Assembly: GCA_018672055.1 (NCBI GenBank)
Contig: JABHGM010000001.1
Span: 432,679-496,678, forward strand
Source of the DNA: a bacterium
GTDB taxonomy: Bacteria; Patescibacteriota; Patescibacteriia; UBA1558; UBA10009
Direction: 5' to 3'
Length of the DNA stretch: 64,000 bases
Numbering within the stretch: the first letter of the stretch is position 1; each line of letters begins with the position of its first letter. Below the pieces are notes generated by a model. It was given only the letters and a program-made list of their open reading frames with translations. It was not told where the DNA came from and did not search any database. Made by a program: the position numbers and the translations under genes. Of this stretch, positions 15,859 to 35,345 are shown in pieces.

Positions 15859-15950
15859 GGAGGGGTCGCATAGTGGCCTAGTGCGCCTGCTTGGAAAGCA
15901 GGTAGACCCGTTAAAAGGTCTCGAGGGTTCGAATCCCTCCCTCTCCGCCA
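15859..15950 (+). tRNA. tRNA-Ser (anticodon GGA), type II with a long variable arm
   Basis: Acceptor ggagggg/cctctcc, anticodon stem cctgc/gcagg with loop ttGGAaa, variable stem gacc/ggtc, T-arm gaggg-ttcgaat-ccctc, CCA encoded. Confidence 0.85.
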
Positions 15951-15965
15951 TATATTTTAATACTT

Positions 15966-17732
15966 ATGAGTTCAATTGAAGAAATAAAGCAAAAATTAGA
16001 TATTGTTGATTTAATTCAAGAATATATTAAGACTCAGCCAGCTGGTATGAATTTTAGAGCGCTTTGTCCATTTCATAATGAAAAGACGCCTTCTTTTGTT
16101 ATTTCTCCAGATAAGCAGATTTGGCATTGTTTTGGCTGCTCAGCAGGTGGTGATGTATTCGAATTTGTTAAACGTATTGAAGGTGTTGAATTTCCTGAGG
16201 CTCTAAGAATTTTAGCTAAAAGAGCTAATGTAAAATTAGAGTATAAGAATCCAGAATTACATAATCAAAAAACTCGATTACTTGATTTACTTAAAGAATT
16301 AACAAATTATTATCATCAAACATTATTAAATGATGATGATGCTAAATTTGTTAGAGAATATTTAAAAAAGAGAGATTTATCAGATGAAACAATTAATACA
16401 TATCAATTAGGTTATGCTAAAGATAGTTGGCAAGATGCTATTAATCATCTTTTAAGCAAAAAGTATTCTCTTCGTGAAATAGAACAAGCTGGAGTAAGTA
16501 AAACGGGGGATAAGAATAAAGCATATGATAGATTAAGAAATAGATTAATATTTCCAATTCGTGATATTCATGGTAACGTCGCAGGTTTTACTGGAAGAAT
16601 AATGGCTACTGAATTTGATGGAGGTAAATATATTAATTCACCAACTTCACCGATATATAATAAGAGTGATATATTATATAATCTAGATTTAGCTAAACAA
16701 GAAATACGTAAAAAAGATTATGCAATTTTAGTAGAAGGTAATGTTGATGCTATTTCTTCATATCAAGCTGGTACTACTAATGTTATAGCTGTTTCTGGAA
16801 CTTCGCTTACTGACAATCAAATTAAATTACTTAAACGTTTTACTCAGAATGTTATGATTGCCTTTGATGCTGATGTAGCAGGAACACAAGCTAATCTTCG
16901 TGGTATTGATTTAATGTGGCAAGCTGGTTTAAATGTTAAAGTAGTTCATTTACCAGAAGATTTAGATCCTGATGATTTAATAAGGAGTGATCTTAGTAAA
17001 TGGAAAGAGTTACTTAGAACAGCTGAGAACTTTATGGATTACATTTTTAAAGTAACTTTAGATGAATTAGATATATCAAGAATAGATCATAAGAAAAAAG
17101 CAGCAGCTAAATTACTTAAAGTAATTTCAAAGCTTGGTGATCCAGTAGAACAGTCACACTATTTAAAGAAATTATCTGGTATATTAAATGTTTCAGAAGA
17201 TGCTTTAACCAAAAAGATTGAGCAACTAAAATCAAAGATAAAGCCTAAAAAAGAAGAAGTATCTGCTGAAGAACCAAAAGTACCCATTTCTCAAGAGCAG
17301 TCTGTAGCTGAAAGTTTACTAGCTTTACTTATTAAATACCCTGAAAATATTAAAGAAATAGAAAGTAAGTTAAAAGCAGAAGAAATACCTTATTTACCAG
17401 TTCAGAAGCTTTACAAAGACCTCATAATCTATTATAATAACAAGCATAATTTTGAATTTAAAGAATTTAGGACCAGTTTAGAAGAAAAAGAAAAAGATTA
17501 TTTAAATCAACTATCATTATTAGCTGATGAAGAAGTCTTGGAAGAAACAAGTCATGAGATAGATCGTGAAATAGTTCAGCTTACTAAACGTCTTAAAGAA
17601 TCATATATAAAAAATAGATTAAGACAACTAGAAATTGAGATAAAAAAAGCTCAGGATAAGAATGATAAGGATGAAGTAAATAAGTTATCTCAAGATTTTA
17701 ATAATTTTACAGATCAGTTAAAAGATTTTTAA
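15966..17732 (+). CDS. dnaG: DNA primase DnaG
   Basis: Zinc-binding CPFHNEKTPSF...CFGC, a Toprim domain (EGNVDAIS, DADVAG), and the dnaG-rpoD order. Confidence 0.9.
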   Translation: MSSIEEIKQKLDIVDLIQEYIKTQPAGMNFRALCPFHNEKTPSFVISPDKQIWHCFGCSAGGDVFEFVKRIEGVEFPEALRILAKRANVKLEYKNPELHNQKTRLLDLLKELTNYYHQTLLNDDDAKFVREYLKKRDLSDETINTYQLGYAKDSWQDAINHLLSKKYSLREIEQAGVSKTGDKNKAYDRLRNRLIFPIRDIHGNVAGFTGRIMATEFDGGKYINSPTSPIYNKSDILYNLDLAKQEIRKKDYAILVEGNVDAISSYQAGTTNVIAVSGTSLTDNQIKLLKRFTQNVMIAFDADVAGTQANLRGIDLMWQAGLNVKVVHLPEDLDPDDLIRSDLSKWKELLRTAENFMDYIFKVTLDELDISRIDHKKKAAAKLLKVISKLGDPVEQSHYLKKLSGILNVSEDALTKKIEQLKSKIKPKKEEVSAEEPKVPISQEQSVAESLLALLIKYPENIKEIESKLKAEEIPYLPVQKLYKDLIIYYNNKHNFEFKEFRTSLEEKEKDYLNQLSLLADEEVLEETSHEIDREIVQLTKRLKESYIKNRLRQLEIEIKKAQDKNDKDEVNKLSQDFNNFTDQLKDF

Positions 17733-17735
17733 AAT

Positions 17736-19085
17736 ATGTCAGTAAAAAAGAAAATTACAAAAAAAGCTAAGCCTAAGAAAAAACCTGTAAAGAAAGCTAA
17801 ACCTAAAAAGAAAGTAACTAAGAAAAAACCAGCTAAGAAAAAGGCACCTGCTAAAAAAGCTAAGCCTAAGAAAAAACCAGCTAAGAAAAAGGCACCTGCT
17901 AAAAAAGCTAAGCCTAAGAAAAAACCAGCTAAGAAAAAGGCACCTGCTAAAAAAGCTGTTCGTAAACCTAGAGCTAAAAAGGAAAAGCCTTACGTAATTA
18001 CAATCCCTACAGAAGAAGAGATAGATAATTTAGTTCAAAAAGGTAGATTAAGAAGCTTTATTACAGAAGAAGAGGTTCTTTTTACTTTTGCTGATGTTGA
18101 AGAATATATTGAGATATTTGAAGATTTTTTAGAAGAAGTAGATCATAATGGAGTCGAAGTGGTAACTCAGGATACAGGATATTTAGGAGATTTTAGTTTA
18201 GAGGAAGATGCAGAAAAAGATAGAATTGCTGATGAACTTAAGAAAATAGATATTGCTGAGATTTCATCTGATTCAATTCAAATGTATTTGAAAGAGATTG
18301 GTAAAGTACCACTACTTAAGAGTGATCAAGAAGTATCTCTTGCCAAGCGTAATGAAAAAGGTGAAGTAGAAGCTCGTAGATTATTAATTGTATCTAATTT
18401 AAGATTAGTAGTTTCCATTGCTAAGAAATTTACTGGACGTTCATTATCTTTACTTGATCTAATTCAAGAAGGTAATATTGGATTATTTAGAGCTGTTGAG
18501 AAATTTGATTATAGGAAGGGCTATAAGTTTTCTACTTATGCTACTTGGTGGATTAGACAAGCTATAACTAGAGCTTTAGCTGATCAATCTAGAACTATTA
18601 GGGTACCAGTTCATATGGTAGAAACTATTAATAGATTTAAACAAGTTGAAAGAAGATTAATTCAAGATTTAGGCAGAGAACCATTACCTGAAGAAATAGC
18701 TGCAGAAATGAATGAAGAGCTTGACAAAGTTAGAAATATCATTAAAATATCACAAGAAACAGTATCTTTGGAAACTTCAGTAGGTGAAGATAGTGAAGAC
18801 TCTACTTTAGGTGATTTTATTGAAGATGATAAGACAATTACTCCAGATAGAGTAGCTGCACTTAGACTTCTTAAAGATCATGTAAAAGATATTATTTCAG
18901 AGCTAACGCCAAGAGAACAAAAGATACTTGAAATGAGATTTGGCTTGTCAGATGGTGTTGCCCATACTTTAGAAGAAGTAGGACAAGAATTTGGAGTAAC
19001 GCGTGAACGTATTAGACAAATAGAAGCTAAATCTTTAGAAAAAATGGCAGATCATAGCGATATGAAGAAATTAAAAGATTATTAA
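17736..19085 (+). CDS. rpoD: Primary sigma factor (RpoD-like) with a lysine/alanine/proline-rich repeat N-terminus
   Basis: Regions 1.2-4 are conserved ([53 protein letters not shown]). The N-terminal ~85 aa are [16 protein letters not shown] repeats. Confidence 0.9.
17811..17954 (+). repeat. Coding tandem repeat: two perfect 48-bp units (17859-17906, 17907-17954) plus a partial upstream copy
   Basis: gctaagcctaagaaaaaaccagctaagaaaaaggcacctgctaaaaaa is repeated exactly. Confidence 0.85.
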
Positions 19086-19160
19086 TCCGGGGTAGCTCAG
19101 TGGTAGAGCAATTGACTGTTAATCAATGGGTCGCAGGTTCGAATCCTGTCCCCGGAGCCA
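19086..19160 (+). tRNA. tRNA-Asn (anticodon GUU)
   Basis: Acceptor tccgggg/ccccgga, anticodon stem attga/tcaat with loop ctGTTaa, T-loop ttcgaat, CCA encoded. It starts immediately after the rpoD stop. Confidence 0.85.
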
Positions 19161-21777: not shown

Positions 21778-22134
21778 ATGTCCACAAAGAAAAAAATACT
21801 TATCGGAGAAGATGAAAGGCCAATGGCAAAAGCTTTAGAGCTTAAATTAAATAGCGTTGGTTTTGAAGCTAAGGCTGTTTTTAATGGAAATGAAGTAATT
21901 GAGGAATTAACTACTAATAAGTATGATTTGTTGTTACTTGATTTAATTATGCCTAAGCTAGGAGGTTTAGAAGTTATTAGAGAAGCTGGTAAAGAACAAA
22001 ATATTATTGTTGTTTCTGCTGTAGGACAGGATAAAGTAGTTAAAGAGGCTAAAGATTTAGGCGCTAAAGGCTATATAGTAAAACCCTTTGACAATAAACA
22101 AGTGATTGAGGAAATAAATAAAGTTTTAGGTTAA
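21778..22134 (+). CDS. cheY: Chemotaxis response regulator CheY
   Basis: Single receiver domain (DD...D57-like LLLDLIMP...K) as the first gene of the che operon. Confidence 0.8.
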   Translation: MSTKKKILIGEDERPMAKALELKLNSVGFEAKAVFNGNEVIEELTTNKYDLLLLDLIMPKLGGLEVIREAGKEQNIIVVSAVGQDKVVKEAKDLGAKGYIVKPFDNKQVIEEINKVLG

Positions 22135-22155
22135 TATTTAAGTGAATATTAATTC

Positions 22156-23199
22156 ATGGTTAAGAAGAAAAAAATAAAAGTTCTTATTGTTGATGATTCT
22201 TTTTTTATGAAAAAGCTCTTACGAGAGCTTCTTTCGTCAGATTCTAGTATTGAAGTAGTAGGTGAAGCTAAAACTGGTTCAGAAGCAATAGGTGAAACAT
22301 TAAGGTTAAAACCTGATGTTATTACTATGGACTATAATATGCCTGGTATGACAGGCGCTGAAGCTATTAGAACGATTATTAATAATGATAAGCTAGAAAG
22401 ACCAGCCATTATAATGCTTTCTGCTTACGCTAAAGAAGGCGCTGATGAAACTATTGAATGTTTAAGAGCTGGTGCTGTAGATTTTATTGCTAAACCTTCT
22501 GGAGAGTTATCACTTGATATTGAAAAAATAAGAGAGGATATATTAAAAAAAATACATACCGCTAAACTTGCTAGAATTCGTAGATTTCCAGGCACTAAAA
22601 AGAGAAGTGGTAAAGTGTCATTTAAAAATATAAAAGGAAGTAAGATTATAGTAATTGGTGCTTCAACTGGAGGTCCGCCTGTAGTTGAAGATATATTACT
22701 TGCCTTACCAAAGAATATTCCGGCTACAATATTTGTAGCTCAACATATGCCAGATTTTTTTATAAGTCGTTTTGCAGAAAGACTTGATAAATTAATGGAT
22801 TTAAAAGTTAAAGTGTTATCAGATAATTCACTTATTGCTCCTAAACAAGTAATTATAGTAAATGATAATTTTAAAATAATTGGTGATAAGATTAAAAGAA
22901 TAAAAATTTGTAAAGTAGATGAAGAATGTGGTGCTAGACCATCTATTGATAGTACAATGATTTCATTATCAAAAGCTTATGGTAAAAAAGTAATAGGTAT
23001 TATGCTATCAGGTATGGGTGAAGATGGATTTGAAGGTTTTAAAGAGATTAGAAGAAATAAAGGATTTACTATAGCTCAGGATTTAAAAACTGCAGTAATA
23101 ACTTCTATGCCTGAAACAGTAATAGAAGCAGGTTTAACGGATTCTGTACTATCACCTAATAAAATAGCTAAAAAGATTATTGAATTATGTAGTGAATAA
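22156..23199 (+). CDS. cheB: Chemotaxis protein-glutamate methylesterase CheB (REC plus methylesterase)
   Basis: N-terminal receiver and C-terminal CheB_methylest (IVIGASTGGPP, catalytic triad region). Confidence 0.85.
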   Translation: MVKKKKIKVLIVDDSFFMKKLLRELLSSDSSIEVVGEAKTGSEAIGETLRLKPDVITMDYNMPGMTGAEAIRTIINNDKLERPAIIMLSAYAKEGADETIECLRAGAVDFIAKPSGELSLDIEKIREDILKKIHTAKLARIRRFPGTKKRSGKVSFKNIKGSKIIVIGASTGGPPVVEDILLALPKNIPATIFVAQHMPDFFISRFAERLDKLMDLKVKVLSDNSLIAPKQVIIVNDNFKIIGDKIKRIKICKVDEECGARPSIDSTMISLSKAYGKKVIGIMLSGMGEDGFEGFKEIRRNKGFTIAQDLKTAVITSMPETVIEAGLTDSVLSPNKIAKKIIELCSE

Positions 23200-23201
23200 A
23201 T

Positions 23202-24974
23202 ATGATTGATCTATCAAAATTTAAAGATATATACGTTAGTGAAACTGAAGACCATTTACAAAAATTAAATGATAATCTTTTAGCATTAGAGAAAGACTTG
23301 TCAAATAAATCATTACTTAATGAATTAATGAGATCAGCTCATACTTTAAAGAGCTCATCAGCTACAATGGGATTTAATGATATGGCATTTCTAACTCATG
23401 TATTAGAAGATGTATTTGATTATGCTAGGAATGATCTATTTAATATTACTTCAGAAACAGTTACTAAATTATTTGAAGCTATAGATAGTTTAGATAATTC
23501 ATTAAAAAGTGTTAAAGAGAAAAATAAGGAATCAGATTTAAAAAAAGTAATTGAGAATATTAAAAAGATTACTGGCGTTAAAACAGAAGGTATTGGAAAA
23601 TCTGTTAGACATGAAGATGGTAAACCACTTGTTGAAAAAAAAGAAGTAAAAAGTGGTGATAATAAGTTAGATGAATTAAAAGAAGCAGATAAAATAACAT
23701 CTATTAAAGTACCGGTTGAGAGATTAGATAAATTAATGGATTTAACTGAAGAGTTATTAATAGATAGAATGAGAATTGAAACCATATCAGGGTATGATTT
23801 AGATAGTAGTTTAACAGATGAAAAGTTAACTTTAGAAAGCCTATTATTTAAGTTAACACCTGCTGTTGAGCATTTAAGTGGCTTAATCTCTAATTTACAA
23901 TATTTAGTCATGCAAGCACGTTTAGTGCCTCTTGGGCAAATATTTGCTCGTTTTCCACGCATGATTAGAGATTTAGCTACTGAAAAGAAGAAAAAAATTA
24001 ATTTAGAAATAAGTGGTGAAGATTTAGAAGTTGATAGAACCATAGTTGATAAATTAGGTGAACCTATTGTACATTTACTTAGAAATGCTTTAGATCATGG
24101 TATTGATACTGAAGGTACTATTAAATTAAAAGCAATACGTGAAAAAGATTTTGTATCAGTTATTGTTGAAGATAATGGCTTAGGAATTGATTTTAAAGAA
24201 GTCGTAGAAGCAGCTGTAAGAAAGAATATAATTGGTAATGATGAAGGAAATAATTATTTAAGTAAGATAGAAAAGAATAAGATATTTGATTACGGTGCTG
24301 ACAAGAAATATGTTGCTGATAGAAAACAAATTGAAGATATATTATTTAATCCAAGACTTAGTACTAATAAGCAAGTTACTAAAACTTCAGGAAGAGGAGT
24401 GGGCTTAAGTGTTGTTAAAAAGTTTAGTGAAGAAATAAATGGTAACATCATATTAGAATCACCATTATCTAAAAAAGGTGGTACTAGATTTACTTTAGAG
24501 TTACCACTTACACTAGCAATAATAAATGCATTACTTGTTAAAATAGATAATTCTATGTTTGCTATACCGTTTTCTAGTATTGCCAGAGCAGTTTCAGTAA
24601 AACCTGAAGATATTAAGAGTATGGCAGATCAAGATGTGGCTGTTGTTGATAATATGAGAGTGCCACTTGTAGATTTAGAAAGAGTATTTCATTTAGTAAA
24701 GCCATTACAAGGTAAAAAAACTATACAACAGCTTGAAAAAGAGAGTAAGCAAATTAATAAGACGGTTGTTTTAGTAAAACGTGGTAAAGAATTAGCTGGT
24801 ATAATAGTAGATAGGTTATTAAATGAGCAAGAAATTATTGTTAAACCATTACCTTCTGTTTTAAAAGGTGTAAAAGGATTTTCTGGCTCTACTATACTTG
24901 GTGATGGTGAAACTATACTTATTCTAGATGTTATTACTTTATTACAAGATTCAAGTAAATTAATTAGAGTTTAA
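23202..24974 (+). CDS. cheA: Chemotaxis histidine kinase CheA
   Basis: P1 HPt (RSAHTLKSS), dimerisation domain, HATPase (NALDHG, GRGVGL) and a C-terminal CheW-like P5 domain. Confidence 0.9.
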   Translation: MIDLSKFKDIYVSETEDHLQKLNDNLLALEKDLSNKSLLNELMRSAHTLKSSSATMGFNDMAFLTHVLEDVFDYARNDLFNITSETVTKLFEAIDSLDNSLKSVKEKNKESDLKKVIENIKKITGVKTEGIGKSVRHEDGKPLVEKKEVKSGDNKLDELKEADKITSIKVPVERLDKLMDLTEELLIDRMRIETISGYDLDSSLTDEKLTLESLLFKLTPAVEHLSGLISNLQYLVMQARLVPLGQIFARFPRMIRDLATEKKKKINLEISGEDLEVDRTIVDKLGEPIVHLLRNALDHGIDTEGTIKLKAIREKDFVSVIVEDNGLGIDFKEVVEAAVRKNIIGNDEGNNYLSKIEKNKIFDYGADKKYVADRKQIEDILFNPRLSTNKQVTKTSGRGVGLSVVKKFSEEINGNIILESPLSKKGGTRFTLELPLTLAIINALLVKIDNSMFAIPFSSIARAVSVKPEDIKSMADQDVAVVDNMRVPLVDLERVFHLVKPLQGKKTIQQLEKESKQINKTVVLVKRGKELAGIIVDRLLNEQEIIVKPLPSVLKGVKGFSGSTILGDGETILILDVITLLQDSSKLIRV

Positions 24975-24984
24975 AATATATTTT

Positions 24985-25599
24985 ATGGCTAAAAAAATAA
25001 CAAGTTTTGAAATTGATCAATTGAAGGAGATTACAAATATAGGGGCAGGTAATGCAAGTACTGCTTTATCACATATGCTTGGTAAAAAAGTACAAATGAC
25101 TGTACCAGAATCATATGTAGGTAAGATAGAAGAAGTTCAGAGAAATTTTGGAGAAGCTTCTGATAAAGTATTAGCTTTATTTCTTAAGATGCACGGAGAT
25201 TTAGAAGGAGCTATGGCTATGATATTTAAGCCAGAAGATGCCTTATCCTTTATGGAAATACTTACTAAGAAGAAAAAGAAAAGCCTTGATGAAATGGATG
25301 AATTAGATGAGTCATCCATTTTAGAAGTAGGTAATATATTACTTGGAGCTTCTATTACTGCTCTAGCTAAATTTTTAGATTTAAATATTACTCATACAAT
25401 TCCTGATATGACAGTTAATATGCTTGGTGCTATTATGGATACTGTTTTATTAGAAATAGGTAGTGATAGTGAAGAAATATTAGCATTTAAAGTTAACTTA
25501 CACTTTTCTGACGATAACATTGGTGGAGATATTTATTATATCTTTGATCCTGCAGCCAGTGGTATTATTTTAAAAGCTACTAAGGAGAAAGTTAAATAA
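24985..25599 (+). CDS. cheC: CheY-P phosphatase CheC
   Basis: Two CheC repeats (EITNIGAGNASTALSHMLG and EVGNILLGASITALAKFLD). Confidence 0.75.
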   Translation: MAKKITSFEIDQLKEITNIGAGNASTALSHMLGKKVQMTVPESYVGKIEEVQRNFGEASDKVLALFLKMHGDLEGAMAMIFKPEDALSFMEILTKKKKKSLDEMDELDESSILEVGNILLGASITALAKFLDLNITHTIPDMTVNMLGAIMDTVLLEIGSDSEEILAFKVNLHFSDDNIGGDIYYIFDPAASGIILKATKEKVK

Positions 25600-26076
25600 A
25601 TGAGTGAAGAAATACATATTAAAACTGCAGAGCTTGTAGTAAGTCATAATGATAATATATTAAAGTCAGGAAGTATTGGCTCTTGTATTGTTATTACATT
25701 ATATGATACTAAAAAAAGAATAGGTGGTATGGCTCATGCTATGCTTCCACATAGAAAAAATAAAATGAAAAACTATGAGGTAAAACCTACTGAAGCAAAG
25801 TATGTTGATGAAGCTGTTGATAATTTAATGAAGGGAATTAAGGATATGGGTGGTGATATTACTGCTTTGGAAGCAAAAATAATAGGTGGGGCTACTATGT
25901 TTAAGAAATTATCAGGTGATAAATTTGGTATAGGTTATAGAAATATAGAGAAGGCTAAAAAAGTCTTACAAAGCCATAAAATAAAGATAGAAAAAGAAGA
26001 TACTGGCGGTAGTAATGGTAAAATGGTAGAATTTAATTTAGCTAATGGAGTAATCCATATATCTACTAATATATAA
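25600..26076 (+). CDS. cheD: Chemoreceptor glutamine deamidase CheD
   Basis: CheD family (GSIGSCIVITLYD...GGMAHAMLP). Confidence 0.8.
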   Translation: MSEEIHIKTAELVVSHNDNILKSGSIGSCIVITLYDTKKRIGGMAHAMLPHRKNKMKNYEVKPTEAKYVDEAVDNLMKGIKDMGGDITALEAKIIGGATMFKKLSGDKFGIGYRNIEKAKKVLQSHKIKIEKEDTGGSNGKMVEFNLANGVIHISTNI

Positions 26077-26080
26077 AAAT

Positions 26081-26455
26081 ATGACTAAAAAAAAGATTTT
26101 AATCGTAGATGATGAAGCACCATTGTCAAAAGTATTAAAAGATAAATTCGAATCAACTGGTTTTGAAGTATTAACAGCTAAAAATGGAGAAGAGGGTTTA
26201 ATGAAAGCTGTTACTCAAAAACCAGACTTAATCTTGCTTGATATAGTTATGCCTAGATTAGATGGTATGACTATGCTTAAAAAGTTAAGAGAAGATGAGT
26301 GGGGCAAGGGTGTAGAGGTTATACTCTTAACAAATTTGAGTGATAATGATAAGGTAAGGCAAGCTTTAAAGAATAATGTATATGATTATTTAATTAAATC
26401 TAATTGGAAACTTGAAGATTTAGTAATAAAAGTAAAAGAAAAATTAGAAGTTTAA
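26081..26455 (+). CDS. Orphan single-domain response regulator, receiver 1 of 3, DEWG subtype
   Basis: REC domain with LLDIVMP and C-terminal KLREDEWG...YLIKSNWKLEDLV; paralogous to receiver 3. Confidence 0.8.
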   Translation: MTKKKILIVDDEAPLSKVLKDKFESTGFEVLTAKNGEEGLMKAVTQKPDLILLDIVMPRLDGMTMLKKLREDEWGKGVEVILLTNLSDNDKVRQALKNNVYDYLIKSNWKLEDLVIKVKEKLEV

Positions 26456-26459
26456 ACAT

Positions 26460-26846
26460 ATGAATGATAATAAAACAGTATTAATATTAATAGTTGAAGA
26501 TGAAAAGCCATTAAGAGAAGCTCTTAAAACTAAATTAAGAAGTGAAGGTTTTGATGTTATGGAAGCAGCTAATGGAGAAGAAGGCTTAGAGATTATAAAT
26601 AGCAAGAAACCAGATTTAGTATTACTTGATTTAATGATGCCTGGTATCCCAGGAGAACAAGTATTAAAAGAAATGAATGATTCAGGTTTAATTAAAGAAA
26701 TACCTGTTATTGTGTTATCTGTTAAGGGTAATGATACTACGATAAGGAATTGCATTGATCAATTAGGAGCTGTTGATTATATGAGTAAGTCAGATTATTC
26801 ATTAAAGGAAATAGTTGAAAAAATTAACAAATTATTAAAAATATAA
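26460..26846 (+). CDS. Orphan single-domain response regulator, receiver 2 of 3
   Basis: REC domain (LLDLMMPGIPG), diverged from receivers 1 and 3. Confidence 0.8.
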   Translation: MNDNKTVLILIVEDEKPLREALKTKLRSEGFDVMEAANGEEGLEIINSKKPDLVLLDLMMPGIPGEQVLKEMNDSGLIKEIPVIVLSVKGNDTTIRNCIDQLGAVDYMSKSDYSLKEIVEKINKLLKI

Positions 26847-26848
26847 TT

Positions 26849-27214
26849 ATGAAAAAAGTTTTAGTTGTGGAGGATGAAAGAACATTAAGAGATGCTTTAG
26901 TTAAAAAGTTATCTAAAGAAGAATTTACAGTACTTTCTGCAAAAGATGGTAAAGAAGGATTAGATACTGCTCTAGCTGAACATCCTGATTTAATCTTACT
27001 TGATATTTTAATGCCTAAAATGAATGGCATTGAAGTGTTACAAAAGTTAAGAGAAGATGAATGGGGAGCTAAAGCAAAAGTAATTGTTTTAACTGTTTTA
27101 AATGATCAAAAGAAAATTTTAGAAGCTTTAGAAAAAGGAGCTTATGAATACCTTGTAAAGAGTGATTGGAAATTAGAAGACATTGTTGAAAGAGTCAAAG
27201 AAAAATTACAGTAG
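26849..27214 (+). CDS. Orphan single-domain response regulator, receiver 3 of 3, DEWG subtype
   Basis: REC domain with KLREDEWG...YLVKSDWKLEDIV. Confidence 0.8.
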   Translation: MKKVLVVEDERTLRDALVKKLSKEEFTVLSAKDGKEGLDTALAEHPDLILLDILMPKMNGIEVLQKLREDEWGAKAKVIVLTVLNDQKKILEALEKGAYEYLVKSDWKLEDIVERVKEKLQ

Positions 27215-31488: not shown

Positions 31489-32049
31489 ATGAGTTATCAT
31501 AATAAAACAAAGACCTCAAAACAAAAAATATTAACTACCTCACCTAAACGTGGTATCTCTTACTATCTATACATTTTTTCTAAGAGATTATTAAAACCTA
31601 TTAATATATTAAAGATCAAAGATAAATTAAAATCTTTGATTTTATTGTTGTTTAATAAAGTATTTCCTCCTGTACCTAAGAGATTATTAAAGTTAGAGAA
31701 GGTAAATAAAGTAAAGAAAAGTACCTCAAAAGAAATAGTCTTACCTCTTTACTTTGGCTGGGAATTAGTAATTAGAAGAATAGAGAATTGGCAACAACAT
31801 ATAATAGGTCCTTTTAAGAAGTATTGGCAGTATATGAGTGTTGTTATGGTATTTATTGTAATAATTGGTACATTTTTCTTAGTTAGAGATTCTGAACCAA
31901 TTAAAGCGGGTACTTACAGTTTTACTCAAACTGGCTGGACAGCCTCATCTACTAACACAGGGGCTCATACAACAGATCAATCTGGTTGGACTGATTATTG
32001 GAGTGAGTATAATGTAGCTACTTCATCAGGAATAACTATATCTAGATAA
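31489..32049 (+). CDS. Hypothetical membrane protein, first gene of the operon
   Basis: Basic N-terminus, one TM segment (VVMVFIVIIGTFFLV) and a Thr/Ser/Trp-rich C-terminus. Its stop overlaps the next ATG (TAATG). Confidence 0.45.
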   Translation: MSYHNKTKTSKQKILTTSPKRGISYYLYIFSKRLLKPINILKIKDKLKSLILLLFNKVFPPVPKRLLKLEKVNKVKKSTSKEIVLPLYFGWELVIRRIENWQQHIIGPFKKYWQYMSVVMVFIVIIGTFFLVRDSEPIKAGTYSFTQTGWTASSTNTGAHTTDQSGWTDYWSEYNVATSSGITISR

Positions 32050-35000
32050 TGAAATATTTAAAAAACAATTCAAAATTATTACTTTCTATATTATTTATAG
32101 TCGGTTTTACTTTTTTTAATATTCAAAGCATAAAAGCAGCTACAATTACCTGGGATGGTAGTGAATCAGTTACTTGGGCAACAGATGATAATTGGGTGGG
32201 TGGTACAGCTCCTGTATCAGGAGATGATGTTGTTATTAATGGAAGTTACGCTAGTGCTCCAACCCTAGATTTAACAGGTGGTTCTGCTACTTTTAACTCA
32301 GTAACTGTTGGTTCTTCTGCTGATTCTATACTTACTATATCTAACTCAACAACTACTAAGAAATTAATAACTACTGCTAATTTTACAATTGGTGCTAATG
32401 GTACTACTACTCATACAGCTAATGGTGGTGTTCAAACTCATAGTTTAGTAATTGATGTTGGTGGTGATGCTCTTATTACTGGATATATGGATGTTAATGG
32501 TAAAGGGCATAGTAGTGGTCAAGGGCCTGGAACTGGAGGAACTCAGGGTCAGTATTCAACGGACGGTGGTGCAAGTTATGGTGGCTTGGGTACAGCCGGG
32601 TATAGTGCTGTTGTAGCAGGATCAGTTTATGGTAGCTTGTCATCACCAGCTGAATTAGGTTCAGGTGGTGGAGGAAGTGGTAGTGGTTCAGGTGGTGGTG
32701 CTATAAAACTTAGTGTCACAGGAACATTGACAGTTAATGGATGGATCTTGTCTAGAGGCGGTGATGCAAGTCTTGCTACGGGTGATGCTGGGGGTTCAGG
32801 TGGTAGTATTTGGCTTGTCGCAGGAACTATTACCGGCTCTGGAACTATAGCTGCTAATGGTGGTGATGGTGGTATGGAAGGATATAATAGCAGAGATGGT
32901 GGAAGTGGTGGTGGTGGTCGTATTGCAATTTATTACACTACTAATACTCATAGTGGTACGGTTTCTGTTTATGGATCTTCTATGAATGCTGCACATATAT
33001 CAACCTCAGGTACGGTTTATGATAAAGATACAGATGATTCATATGGAAGTTTAACAATAAATAATAATGGTAATAATTCCATTTTAAGTACTCCATTAAT
33101 TGATGGAACATATAACTTTAAAGGATTTACAGCGTCAGGTTTAGCTGAAGTATTATTATCTGCTAGTGATATTATAAATACTGAGACAATAACTTTGTCA
33201 GCTTCTTCTACATTACTTAATACAGATGCAGCAATTACTGTAACTTCATCGTTTACTATATCTAATGGAGCTCAATATGAGCAAAGTGAAACCGCTTCTT
33301 TAACTGCAACAGCGGCTAGTTTTACAGCAGCGGCTGGTGCAGGACCTACTTTTTGGGATATTCATAAGGATGGGTCTACACCAACGTTTACTAGTGCAAC
33401 TATTGCATCTGGAGCGACTCTTACTCATTCGGCGCAGGCCACAGCACATACATATTCTTTGAAACTTGCTGTTTCTGGTAATATGACAGTTACAGGTGAT
33501 ATAAATGTTAATGATAGAGGGTATAGATATGGTCAAGGTCCTGGAACTGGAGGAACTAAGGGTCAGTATTCAACGGACGGGGGCGCAAGTTATGGCGGAT
33601 TGGGTACACTCGGGTATGGTATTGCAGCAGGAGTAGTTTATGGCTATCAATATGCGCCAATTGATATTGGTTCAGGTGGCGGTGGTAGTACTGGTAGTGG
33701 TTCAGGTGGCGGCGCTATTAAACTTATAGCTGGTGGAATATTTACAGTTAATGGATCTATTCTCTCTAGCGGTGGTGATGCAGGTTCAAGCACTGGTGAT
33801 GCCGGAGGTTCAGGTGGTAGTATTTGGATTGAGGGTGAAACTATTACCGGCTCTGGAACTATAGCTGCTAATGGCGGTGATGGTGGTGTAGAGGGATATT
33901 CTAGTAGAGATGGCGGTGGTGGCGGTGGTGGTCGTATGATTATCTATCATACATTAACTGAAAGTTTAGATGGAACGATTACAGTAACTGGTGGTAATGG
34001 GAATAATAATGGTATGGCTTCTGATGGCACTCTTAATAGATATGCTACTTACGGAGAACTTGTTTCTTCACCATATAACACAGAAGATTCAGCTGTTATC
34101 CTTGAAGGTATAGTTTGGATAGAAGATGCAACACTTCCTGCAACAACTACAGTAACTTTATATTTAAGAACAGGTTCAAATCAGGCTAATTTGCTTGCTG
34201 CTTCTTGGTCAGAGATAGCCTCATCTACTTCTAGTGGTCTTTTAACAACAGGTGCTACTAAGGATACAGGTACTGTAACTGTAGCTTCTACTACTCTTCC
34301 GGCTGCCATGAAAGATGGATCTGATGATCAATGGATACAATACAAGGTAGCCATAACTTCAACTACAGCTTCAACTCCTACAATTACTAGTATTCAAGTC
34401 TCATATATTTCTAATTCAGCTCCATCTGTTCAAGGAGTAACTGCTTCTCAAGACTCAGATGGTAATATTGATATAGTCTATGCAGTTCTAGACTCAGATA
34501 CTGATGAAGGTTCAGTTCAATCAGGGTATATAACTCCATCTTTTGAATATTCTTTAGATAATGGTTCAACGTGGACTACAATAACAACAGGTTTAAATTC
34601 AACAGCTACCAATAATGTAGTGGTAACTCAAGGTAGTTACGCGACGTACACGGCGACGTGGTTGCCGAGACAGCAGATAGACGGAAACTATGCAGCGCAA
34701 GGTATGATTAGAGCTATTGCTTCTGATGGAGAAGCTGCTAATGCTATTGGTTCATCAACATCTATTGCCTTTGCTTTAGATGCTAAGTCTCCTGCTGCCG
34801 GATCTCCAGCAATTGTAATTGTTGCAACTACTACTCCTGCAAGTTTAACAATATCTGCAACAGATGATACTTCAATGACTATGAAGATATCTCTAGATAG
34901 TGATTTTTCTAGCGGATCATTTGTATCATATAACTCAACTTCAACCGTATCTTTAGTTGATGATCCAGATACTGTATATATTCAATTTAAAGATGCTAAT

Positions 35001-35345
35001 TCAAATAGTACAACAGCTAGTATTTTAACTCCTAATACTCCAGCTAATGTTATGATTCAAGACACAACTAATGTAACAGCTGACCCTGATGAAAGTAGGT
35101 TGTTTATCGCTTGGTCTGTTGTTGATGATCCAGCTATTGGTTTTTCTAGATATGAAGTATATAGATCAACAGATCAATCAACATATACTTTAGTTGGTTC
35201 TAGTACAACCCGTACTCTAAACTATTATGGAGATAATTCAGTAGCAGCTTCTACTACTTACTATTACAAAGTAGCTACTCTAGATACTAATGGTAATACC
35301 TCATATATGTCATCTGCTGTATATGGTTTGGCTAATGGTATTTAA
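32049..35345 (+). CDS. Giant secreted Gly/Thr/Ser-rich repeat protein, N-terminal part (1,098 codons) ending at an in-frame TAA
   Basis: Signal peptide, a duplicated ~150-aa glycine-rich module (GQGPGTGG..GQYSTDGGASYGGLGT...GGGAIKL...GGSGGSIW...IAANGGDGG) and a terminal Fn3-like domain. Confidence 0.6.
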   Translation: MKYLKNNSKLLLSILFIVGFTFFNIQSIKAATITWDGSESVTWATDDNWVGGTAPVSGDDVVINGSYASAPTLDLTGGSATFNSVTVGSSADSILTISNSTTTKKLITTANFTIGANGTTTHTANGGVQTHSLVIDVGGDALITGYMDVNGKGHSSGQGPGTGGTQGQYSTDGGASYGGLGTAGYSAVVAGSVYGSLSSPAELGSGGGGSGSGSGGGAIKLSVTGTLTVNGWILSRGGDASLATGDAGGSGGSIWLVAGTITGSGTIAANGGDGGMEGYNSRDGGSGGGGRIAIYYTTNTHSGTVSVYGSSMNAAHISTSGTVYDKDTDDSYGSLTINNNGNNSILSTPLIDGTYNFKGFTASGLAEVLLSASDIINTETITLSASSTLLNTDAAITVTSSFTISNGAQYEQSETASLTATAASFTAAAGAGPTFWDIHKDGSTPTFTSATIASGATLTHSAQATAHTYSLKLAVSGNMTVTGDINVNDRGYRYGQGPGTGGTKGQYSTDGGASYGGLGTLGYGIAAGVVYGYQYAPIDIGSGGGGSTGSGSGGGAIKLIAGGIFTVNGSILSSGGDAGSSTGDAGGSGGSIWIEGETITGSGTIAANGGDGGVEGYSSRDGGGGGGGRMIIYHTLTESLDGTITVTGGNGNNNGMASDGTLNRYATYGELVSSPYNTEDSAVILEGIVWIEDATLPATTTVTLYLRTGSNQANLLAASWSEIASSTSSGLLTTGATKDTGTVTVASTTLPAAMKDGSDDQWIQYKVAITSTTASTPTITSIQVSYISNSAPSVQGVTASQDSDGNIDIVYAVLDSDTDEGSVQSGYITPSFEYSLDNGSTWTTITTGLNSTATNNVVVTQGSYATYTATWLPRQQIDGNYAAQGMIRAIASDGEAANAIGSSTSIAFALDAKSPAAGSPAIVIVATTTPASLTISATDDTSMTMKISLDSDFSSGSFVSYNSTSTVSLVDDPDTVYIQFKDANSNSTTASILTPNTPANVMIQDTTNVTADPDESRLFIAWSVVDDPAIGFSRYEVYRSTDQSTYTLVGSSTTRTLNYYGDNSVAASTTYYYKVATLDTNGNTSYMSSAVYGLANGI
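32480..33960 (+). repeat. Intragenic duplication: ~460-bp glycine-rich module present twice (about 32480-32950 and 33500-33960)
   Basis: By eye the two copies are roughly 85% identical at DNA level, for example ggtcagtattcaacggacggtggtgcaagttatgg versus ggtcagtattcaacggacgggggcgcaagttatgg. Confidence 0.7.

Follow-up and report, generated by a model that had tools for sequence, protein, structure and literature searches.

A polycationic, partly repeat-built N-terminal tail ahead of region 1.1 in the primary sigma factor of a marine Patescibacteria genome and its relatives

Architecture of the RpoD protein

We analyzed a stretch of 64,000 nucleotides (nt), hereafter the window (assembly GCA_018672055.1, contig JABHGM010000001.1, positions 432,679 to 496,678 of the forward strand), from an AT-rich marine bacterium of the Patescibacteria, or candidate phyla radiation (CPR), whose genome has a guanine-plus-cytosine (GC) content of about 30%; and we concentrated on its primary sigma-factor gene rpoD, listed among the open reading frames (ORFs) at 17736..19085 (+) with a product of 449 residues. 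As judged from sequence comparison and structure prediction, this protein is a polycationic tail joined to a complete Firmicutes-type SigA (residues 92–449); and because those residues include region 1.1 along with the rest of SigA, the tail is an extra N-terminal module. The tail (residues 1–91; 17736..18008, +) carries 45 Lys, a net charge of +46, and 32% Ala plus Pro, and is predicted to be disordered. Over residues 1–85, Lys makes up 49% of the sequence in the company of Ala and Pro, the first 90 or so codons being nearly all AAA or AAG for Lys, GCT or GCA for Ala, and CCT or CCA for Pro; and in an AlphaFold2 model built on a 73-sequence alignment the same residues had no secondary structure, with a predicted local-distance difference test (pLDDT) score of ~50. 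Among the ~60 ORFs of the window, a polybasic segment was found in only RpoD, with DnaB, DnaG, and RecR lacking one.

Beyond the tail, and likewise on the + strand, the gene encodes the folded core of region 1.1 (residues 92–145; 18009..18170), with helices at residues 93–106, 111–117, and 125–137 plus two short strands; an acidic linker between regions 1.1 and 1.2 (residues 146–178; 18171..18269), recognized by charge count and in AlphaFold; and then region 1.2 (residues 179–210; 18270..18365; Pfam PF00140, 8.5e-14), region 2 (residues 217–287; 18384..18596; PF04542, 7.3e-24), region 3 (residues 296–372; 18621..18851; PF04539, 1.3e-21), and region 4 (residues 387–437; 18894..19046; PF04545, 7.5e-16). 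Regions 1.2, 2, 3, and 4 are thus collinear and an acidic region 1.1 is present, which arrangement is that of the group 1 sigma factors.

The evidence for region 1.1 came from several comparisons. The Pfam model Sigma70_r1_1 (PF03979) matched residues 93–167 marginally, at 22.7 bits against a cutoff of 22.5; region 1.1 together with the linker has a net charge of -21; and a profile of residues 86–178, made from the query and 28 homologues, matched almost exclusively region 1.1 of other sigma factors, including the two solved isolated domains of Thermotoga maritima (2K6X, 3.6e-5) and Bacillus subtilis (5MWW, 1.5e-3) and the N-terminus of Clostridioides difficile SigA (2e-5). AlphaFold2 returned a compact helical domain over residues 90–145 at a pLDDT of 94–96, with which the model of the isolated domain agreed; and a Foldseek search with that isolated model placed the B. 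subtilis SigA model and 5MWW on top, though with weak E-values of 0.04 and 0.23 that make this result supportive only. A search of solved structures with the N-terminal 178 residues alone gave nothing beyond a compositional match to a histone H2B tail and noise.

The alignments of longer segments pointed the same way. Against chains of the PDB, residues 95–449 corresponded to residues 16–369 of B. subtilis SigA, and residues 98–449 to residues 19–388 of C. difficile SigA; a third SigA chain (8x6f) was likewise collinear with the query, all three chains entering the alignment from their residues 16–19, and the best alignment to the SigA/RpoD chains had an E-value of 9e-109. Similarly, residues 92–449 covered positions 12–368 of the 370 in PRK09210, an RpoD model and the best of the NCBIfam matches. 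The protein fell short of the curated NCBIfam score for an RpoD equivalog (452.5 bits with PRK09210 against a cutoff of 572) and, narrowly, of that of TIGR02393 (RpoD_Cterm; 352 against 354). Near misses of this sort are to be expected when the phylum is divergent, and the models that scored best are all of them RpoD models.

These results sustain one part of the first-pass annotation of this DNA and revise another. That annotation had taken the gene for a primary sigma factor, in keeping with the strong Pfam matches to regions 1.2–4, the best NCBIfam model being that of RpoD, and the adjacency of dnaG. It had also described the tail as fused straight to regions 1.2–4, with the implied loss of the acidic region 1.1; the alignments, the profile, and the AlphaFold model place instead a folded, acidic region 1.1 between the two, so that the tail was added ahead of a region 1.1 that stays. 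We therefore rejected a replacement of region 1.1 by the tail, residues 92–145 being the folded region 1.1 itself.

The tandem repeat and its copy-number alleles

The tail is encoded in large part by a tandem array of a 48-nt (16-codon) unit in 4.2 copies (17760..17957, +; Tandem Repeats Finder score 291, 87% matches), of which the older copies are degenerate. Within that array a core of 140 nt (17818..17957, +), equal to 2.92 units, is perfectly periodic, its units being 100% identical. Each base there equals the one 48 positions farther on over 92 consecutive bases, and chance falls far short of explaining such a 92/92 match at period 48, even where the DNA is rich in A. In the protein the 16-residue unit occurs in exactly two copies (residues 42–57 and 58–73), preceded by a partial copy (residues 29–41) and, further upstream, by degenerate ones. 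The first-pass annotation had thus been correct, in coordinates and in detail, in reporting a highly basic N-terminus of ~85 residues made from perfect 48-bp repeats, and its count of two identical units plus a partial third agrees with the 2.92-unit core, to which the older degenerate copies upstream are to be added. The resemblance to histone H1 and AlgP that it had noticed in this low-complexity N-terminus is likewise found in the similar composition of Lys, Ala, and Pro.

Many independent assemblies, drawn from NCBI, ENA, and the JGI, contain the repeat block, the allele of 449 residues being indexed in 67 collection blocks, on which grounds we rejected a one-off assembly artefact. The 449-residue protein is present in at least 32 public contigs, and genes identical to the rpoD of the window occur on contigs of up to 963 kb. 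A few of the contigs bear names (SI60aug11_200m, HAWL17) that may point to samples from Saanich Inlet.

Within the cluster at 90% identity we found three full-length alleles, of 449, 433, and 417 residues, which lengths correspond to three, two, and one perfect units, respectively, the perfect cores in the other assemblies measuring 92 nt and roughly 44–56 nt. The alleles were identical (100%) in all the sequence compared outside the repeat, up to 3 kb on each side, and differed always by exact multiples of 48 nt; by way of example, the assemblies ERZ27250245, ERZ27250246, and ERZ27250230 carry three, two, and one units. The occurrence of these in-frame alleles on contigs with identical flanks is in keeping with the earlier view that the repeats look recent. 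Slipped-strand or recombinational changes in length would leave such a pattern, and the collapse of short reads would produce it as well. Since the 48-nt unit is in frame, no on/off switching results from a change in copy number.

That the one-, two-, and three-unit alleles are artefacts—the perfect repeat having been collapsed in short-read de Bruijn assemblies—is an explanation to which we give slightly less than even chances. Nothing outside the repeat marks the alleles as separate strains, most of the contigs that we retrieved are MEGAHIT k141 products, the 140-nt core is close to a common short-read length (assumed to be ~150 nt), and some contigs break inside the repeat (e.g., L099). Against a collapse stands the breadth of the sources, in that the two-unit allele was seen in ENA k141 contigs, HAWL17 scaffolds, JGI contigs, and an NCBI metagenome-assembled genome (MAG; L098), and the three-unit allele also came from several sources; and we reason, in addition, that a period of 48 over 140 nt leaves no repeated k-mer at k≥93, so that such assemblies should resolve the core. 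The strict spacing of the differences by whole units speaks on the same side. Two exact-pattern scans of JGI metagenomes with the unique sequence just 3' of the repeat gave no matches, the scanned collection evidently not holding these contigs.

Distribution and evolution of the tail among relatives

To place the tail among its relatives we assembled the query plus the 120 best homologues (62–92% identity), of which 118 could be anchored on region 1.1, and called a tail whenever at least 25 residues with a charge of at least +10 preceded that region. The homologues with the most informative names belonged to the Komeilibacteria, the Falkowbacteria, the Parcubacteria, and the "Patescibacteria group". 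A polybasic tail was present in 116 of the 118 anchored proteins (Patescibacteria/CPR), with a median of 76 residues and a charge of +28, the extremes reaching 153 residues and +72; and the two proteins without one, being identical to the post-tail part of full-length neighbors, look like truncated start calls. As to whether the basic tail extends across the lineage, which question the first-pass annotation had proposed to settle by an alignment of RpoD relatives, the tail is thus lineage-wide, while its sequence, unit, and length vary.

In the DNA of the GTDB species representatives, most loci of the Patescibacteria type with a readable N-terminus encode a tail, 14 in all (L001–L007, L009–L011, L014, L016, L017, and L021), several of these standing under other or generic record labels, whereas in the raw DNA of Firmicutes and other phyla SigA begins straight at region 1.1. 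A wider survey took in the 150 best 50%-identity representatives of all sequence space and located region 1.2 in 130 of them. In 22 of those 130 a polybasic stretch of 25 residues or more lies at the N-terminus, and in a further 15 it is internal. The clusters of ten tail-bearing representatives carried almost no taxonomic names, but one of them is labeled as a Bacilli or Clostridia MAG. The trait is therefore probably not exclusive to the CPR, as far as these labels and sequences tell, and it may have arisen several times. Five of the 50%-identity representatives, of unknown or non-CPR origin (P0191, P0155, P0160, P0233, and P0146), have some 120–170 polybasic residues at the N-terminus.

The tails of different homologues defy alignment, composition being all that they conserve; pooled, they contain 36% Lys, 13% Ala, 8.5% Val, 8% Pro, and 2.5% Asp plus Glu. 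In 14 of the 118 proteins the tail holds adjacent duplicates of its own (≥85% identity) in lineage-specific units of 12–24 residues, from which we conclude that tandem duplication has been repeated and independent; on the sequences compared, the tail appears to change through recurrent rounds in which such units are duplicated in tandem or lost. Tails persist in genomes from 31% to 58% GC, with Arg taking a growing share of the basic residues at higher GC (rho 0.80, n=12). This persistence, like the enrichment of the tails in Ala and Pro, which residues have GC-rich codons, speaks against a pure effect of AT bias. Our reading of these sequence data is that the positive charge is probably selected and that AT bias inflates the size of the tail, which would make the tail a natural example of selection acting on charge and length instead of on sequence, with an ongoing turnover of repeats.

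Possible function of the tail

Region 1.1 is regarded as a mimic of DNA, acidic in charge, which shuts DNA out of both free sigma and the channel of the polymerase. Ahead of such a domain, we propose that the tail serves as a nonspecific electrostatic DNA tether for sigma or the holoenzyme, a proposal that we regard, on the strength of analogy, as having about an even chance of being right. The tail would act in the manner of the C-terminal tail of histone H1 or of the actinobacterial "lysine repeats", as a disordered tether that is indifferent to sequence, probably with a preference for the minor groove of AT-rich DNA. Sigma, or the holoenzyme, would be held at the nucleoid in this way, which might aid the capture of promoters or the stability of the open complex, and region 1.1 would go on serving as the gate of the DNA channel. 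Charge and length, not sequence, would then be under selection, and a change in repeat number would offer an in-frame means of altering the length of the tail.

We favor the tether for four reasons. The composition of the tail matches that of H1-type and actinobacterial lysine-repeat tails, for which DNA binding has been shown in TopA and DdbA; AT-hook cores occur in four of the homologous tails above the expectation from shuffling; the charge of the tail far exceeds what would neutralize region 1.1; and, as sigma A of Mycobacterium tuberculosis shows, the output of initiation can be dominated by a disordered extension at the N-terminus of a primary sigma factor. The AT-hook cores, of canonical form (KKRGRPRLKP, KKRGRPAKKR), were found in 4 of 116 homologous tails (P0011, P0034, P0095, and P0099), where shuffles led us to expect 0.5; and two homologues (P0068 and P0118) have a precomputed match to the H1-like Pfam family HC2 (PF07382).

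Several observations weigh against the tether. The tail of the query itself has no AT-hook core (G-R-P flanked by basic residues), gave no significant match to HC2 (E-value 0.82, with 10.2 bits where the cutoff is 40), and by inspection is without the strict TopA-type motif K1-2(A/T/N)3-5; and we infer the binding of DNA by the tail from composition and analogy. Polycations also bind RNA and polyphosphate. A tail of +46 beside a domain of -21 could, moreover, act mainly within the molecule. Among the relatives, the Patescibacteria-labeled locus L071 is without a tail, L012 has only ~14 basic residues, and L061, labeled in the same way, has neither a tail nor a recognizable region 1.1. Finally, tail length and net charge fall as GC rises (rho -0.74), so that mutational bias contributes to the size of the tail.

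The adjacency of those opposite charges is the starting point of the first alternative, an intramolecular switch, in which the tail would fold onto the acidic region 1.1 and the linker, or compete with the DNA-binding surfaces of regions 2 and 4 for region 1.1, and so adjust how far free sigma inhibits itself and how region 1.1 is expelled from the channel of the RNA polymerase, bulk tethering not being the main role. Across the 118 homologues more positive tails go weakly with a more acidic region 1.1 (Spearman -0.23, p 0.013), and sigma factors are known to control the kinetics of initiation through their N-terminal regions (PMC11888270). Nevertheless, that correlation is weak and without phylogenetic correction, AlphaFold does not confidently place the tail in contact with region 1.1, the median tail of +28 set against a median region 1.1 of -11 leaves a large surplus for other polyanions, and the AT-hook cores of some tails point to DNA. 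We judge such a switch to be unlikely.

Still less do we expect the tail to be a tolerated low-complexity expansion, in which slippage-prone repeats of A-rich codons grow harmlessly at a disordered N-terminus with no specific function. The absence of sequence conservation, the recurrence of independent duplications, the longer and more charged tails of AT-rich genomes, and the few Patescibacteria that have no tail are all compatible with such an expansion. Yet 116 of the 118 homologues keep the tail with a consistently high positive charge and a mere 2.5% of acidic residues; that charge is maintained in GC-rich genomes through the shift from Lys to Arg; the tail is confined to RpoD among the ORFs of the window; and the SigA proteins of AT-rich Firmicutes have none.

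A tail of +30 to +70 mounted on region 1.1 in nearly all the sampled close relatives, within a major uncultured radiation of bacteria, suggests that initiation in these minimal cells either includes an extra, nonspecific DNA-capture step or regulates the electrostatics of region 1.1 differently. A broader generalization would be that across much of the CPR the housekeeping sigma factor gained a polycationic, nucleoid-binding tail, as a general module for DNA capture or as an electrostatic partner for region 1.1, and that it did so in cells whose transcription factors are very few. The gain and loss of in-frame repeats would make the length of the tail, and with it the global occupancy of promoters, tunable within populations; we offer this generalization as a speculation, and a rather doubtful one.

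Translation start

That the tail is left untranslated and the protein begins downstream, for example at the ATT of codon 88, we consider very improbable. Public annotations of this one gene conflict: four NCBI accessions give 449 residues and three MAG records 362, the latter, PGAP-style annotations beginning with MTIPTEEE at that ATT despite an in-frame tail upstream. L098 (NCBI GCA_018652385.1, 1–480), for example, has the complete in-frame ATG and tail upstream of the annotated 362-residue start. We read the shorter products as a choice of start made by the annotation pipeline and not as evidence on the true start; start calling guided by domain models can trim tails of this kind.

Of the start codons past the dnaG stop, the ATG at 17736 comes first, 3 nt beyond that stop. 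The frame of the tail contains no stop in 90 codons of 30%-GC DNA, as against 4 and 18 stops in the other two forward frames, and the next canonical in-frame start is the GTG of codon 142, and a protein begun there would be missing almost the whole core of region 1.1. Starts at ATT are very rare. Although no Shine–Dalgarno motif precedes the ATG, just 7 out of 50 ORFs of the window have one, which makes the absence uninformative; the genome seems, on this count, to rely largely on initiation without them. The strongest argument is comparative, an extension that is open, begins with ATG, and is polybasic being retained by over 100 homologues, to which the difference of all the alleles by whole 48-nt units may be added. 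On the basis of the stop-free frame, those whole-unit differences, and the homologues, we rejected a frame artefact or an untranslated leader; the prospect of a start beyond the repeats, which the first-pass annotation had itself raised, was thus not borne out.

Gene context and other features of the window

The gene for the primase, dnaG (588 residues; 15966..17732, +), precedes rpoD and is recognized in the ORF list by the Pfam domains Zn_ribbon_DnaG, DNAG_N, Toprim, and DnaB_bind. Its TAA stop plus 3 nt (TAA AAT) make up the whole gap to the rpoD ATG, both genes being in one frame; and the order dnaG–rpoD, that of the macromolecular synthesis operon, is found here as in all the related contigs that reach upstream. 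A tRNA-Asn(GTT) gene (19086..19160, +; ARAGORN, Rfam) has its first base directly after the rpoD stop. The dnaG–rpoD pair thus sits between two tRNAs (15859–19160), a tRNA-Ser ending 15 nt 5' of dnaG and the tRNA-Asn lying directly 3' of rpoD, and the ends of the dnaG–rpoD mRNA may be set by tRNA processing. A scan for promoters and terminators around the pair gave 25 promoter-like sites versus 18.2 ± 4.8 in shuffles, which figure we took to be uninformative, and no terminator-like site.

Elsewhere in the window, whose GC content is ~0.27–0.32 over most of its length, positions 21778–27214 (+) hold a chemotaxis-type cluster, in a Patescibacteria genome of roughly 1 Mb, with the order receiver domain, CheB, CheA (Hpt/HATPase/CheW), CheC/CheX, CheD, and three single-domain receivers. 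An ORF of 1098 residues without a Pfam match (32049–35345, +) occupies the only stretch of elevated GC (0.40 versus about 0.30), and 3' of it, up to 40390, come a protein of 799 residues with three purple-acid-phosphatase-N/Fn3 repeats and then a MacB-type pair of an ATP-binding-cassette transporter. Between 41313 and 63628 lies a dense purine-synthesis set, comprising guaB, guaA, purA, folD, purL-like, purM-like AIRS, purQ-like, purC, purB, purF-like, and purH genes. Most descriptions of CPR bacteria have them without a de novo synthesis of nucleotides, so that the set may be unusual for the CPR.

Comparison with known systems

With the canonical group 1 sigma factors, namely Escherichia coli sigma-70 and B. 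subtilis SigA, the RpoD of the window shares the collinear regions 1.1, 1.2, 2, 3, and 4 as well as the common order dnaG–rpoD; its identity with the SigA of Firmicutes is 51–58% when region 1.1 is included and 63–66% over regions 1.2–4 alone. It differs from these proteins in having ~90 extra polybasic residues ahead of region 1.1, and it is without the nonconserved insertion between regions 1.2 and 2.

Lysine-rich appendages are known from the Actinobacteria. The C-terminal lysine repeats of Streptomyces TopA confer DNA binding and processivity (PMC5714199), and the same source also lists HupS, FtsK, Ku, the sigma factor HrdB, and the RpoD of Bordetella pertussis as carriers; those repeats, of the motif K1-2(A/T/N)3-5, have been proposed to be typical of GC-rich genomes (PMC5714199; Strzalka et al., 2017). 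They and the tail described here are alike as low-complexity, repeat-built appendages, rich in Lys and Ala, on proteins that act on DNA, primary sigma factors among them. The tail of the query departs from the actinobacterial motif, however, in its runs of two or three Lys separated by spacers of one to three Ala or Pro residues and in its richness in Pro, and it comes from a genome of ~30% GC in a different phylum, the Patescibacteria. It stands at the extreme N-terminus ahead of region 1.1. Lysine repeats in primary sigma factors being thus already known, the present case differs in the low GC content, the motif, the position at the extreme N-terminus before a retained region 1.1, and the occurrence in nearly all the sampled close relatives in the Patescibacteria; and a literature search, though poor in its coverage of subscription journals, found no description of a basic tail on the RpoD of CPR/Patescibacteria.

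The C-terminal tail of histone H1, the Chlamydia proteins Hc1 and Hc2, and the Pseudomonas AlgP-type tails (KPAA/PAKK) have a like composition of Lys, Ala, and Pro with a short internal periodicity, and share with the tail of the query both the predicted disorder and the electrostatic DNA binding that would be expected of it. The resemblance is nevertheless compositional and not homologous, and the tail of the query is borne by a sigma factor and not by a nucleoid protein. Close in architecture is DdbA of Streptomyces, whose H1-like N-terminal domain on a DksA-like protein binds and condenses DNA (PMC3643593), so that there, too, a lysine-repeat, H1-like module is placed at the N-terminus of a protein that binds RNA polymerase; the partner domain is DksA-like in the one and a sigma-70 in the other, the lineages differ, and the repeats of DdbA are S/T-A/T-A-K-K pentapeptides. 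For a primary sigma factor with a disordered extension the parallel is sigma A of M. tuberculosis, the deletion of whose disordered N-terminal extension of 205 residues shifts the output of transcription in vitro by orders of magnitude, that extension being predicted to be entirely disordered and not homologous to region 1.1 of E. coli (PMC11888270). Both are lineage-specific, disordered N-terminal extensions of a primary sigma factor; but the protein of the window keeps a folded region 1.1 behind an extension that is purely polycationic.

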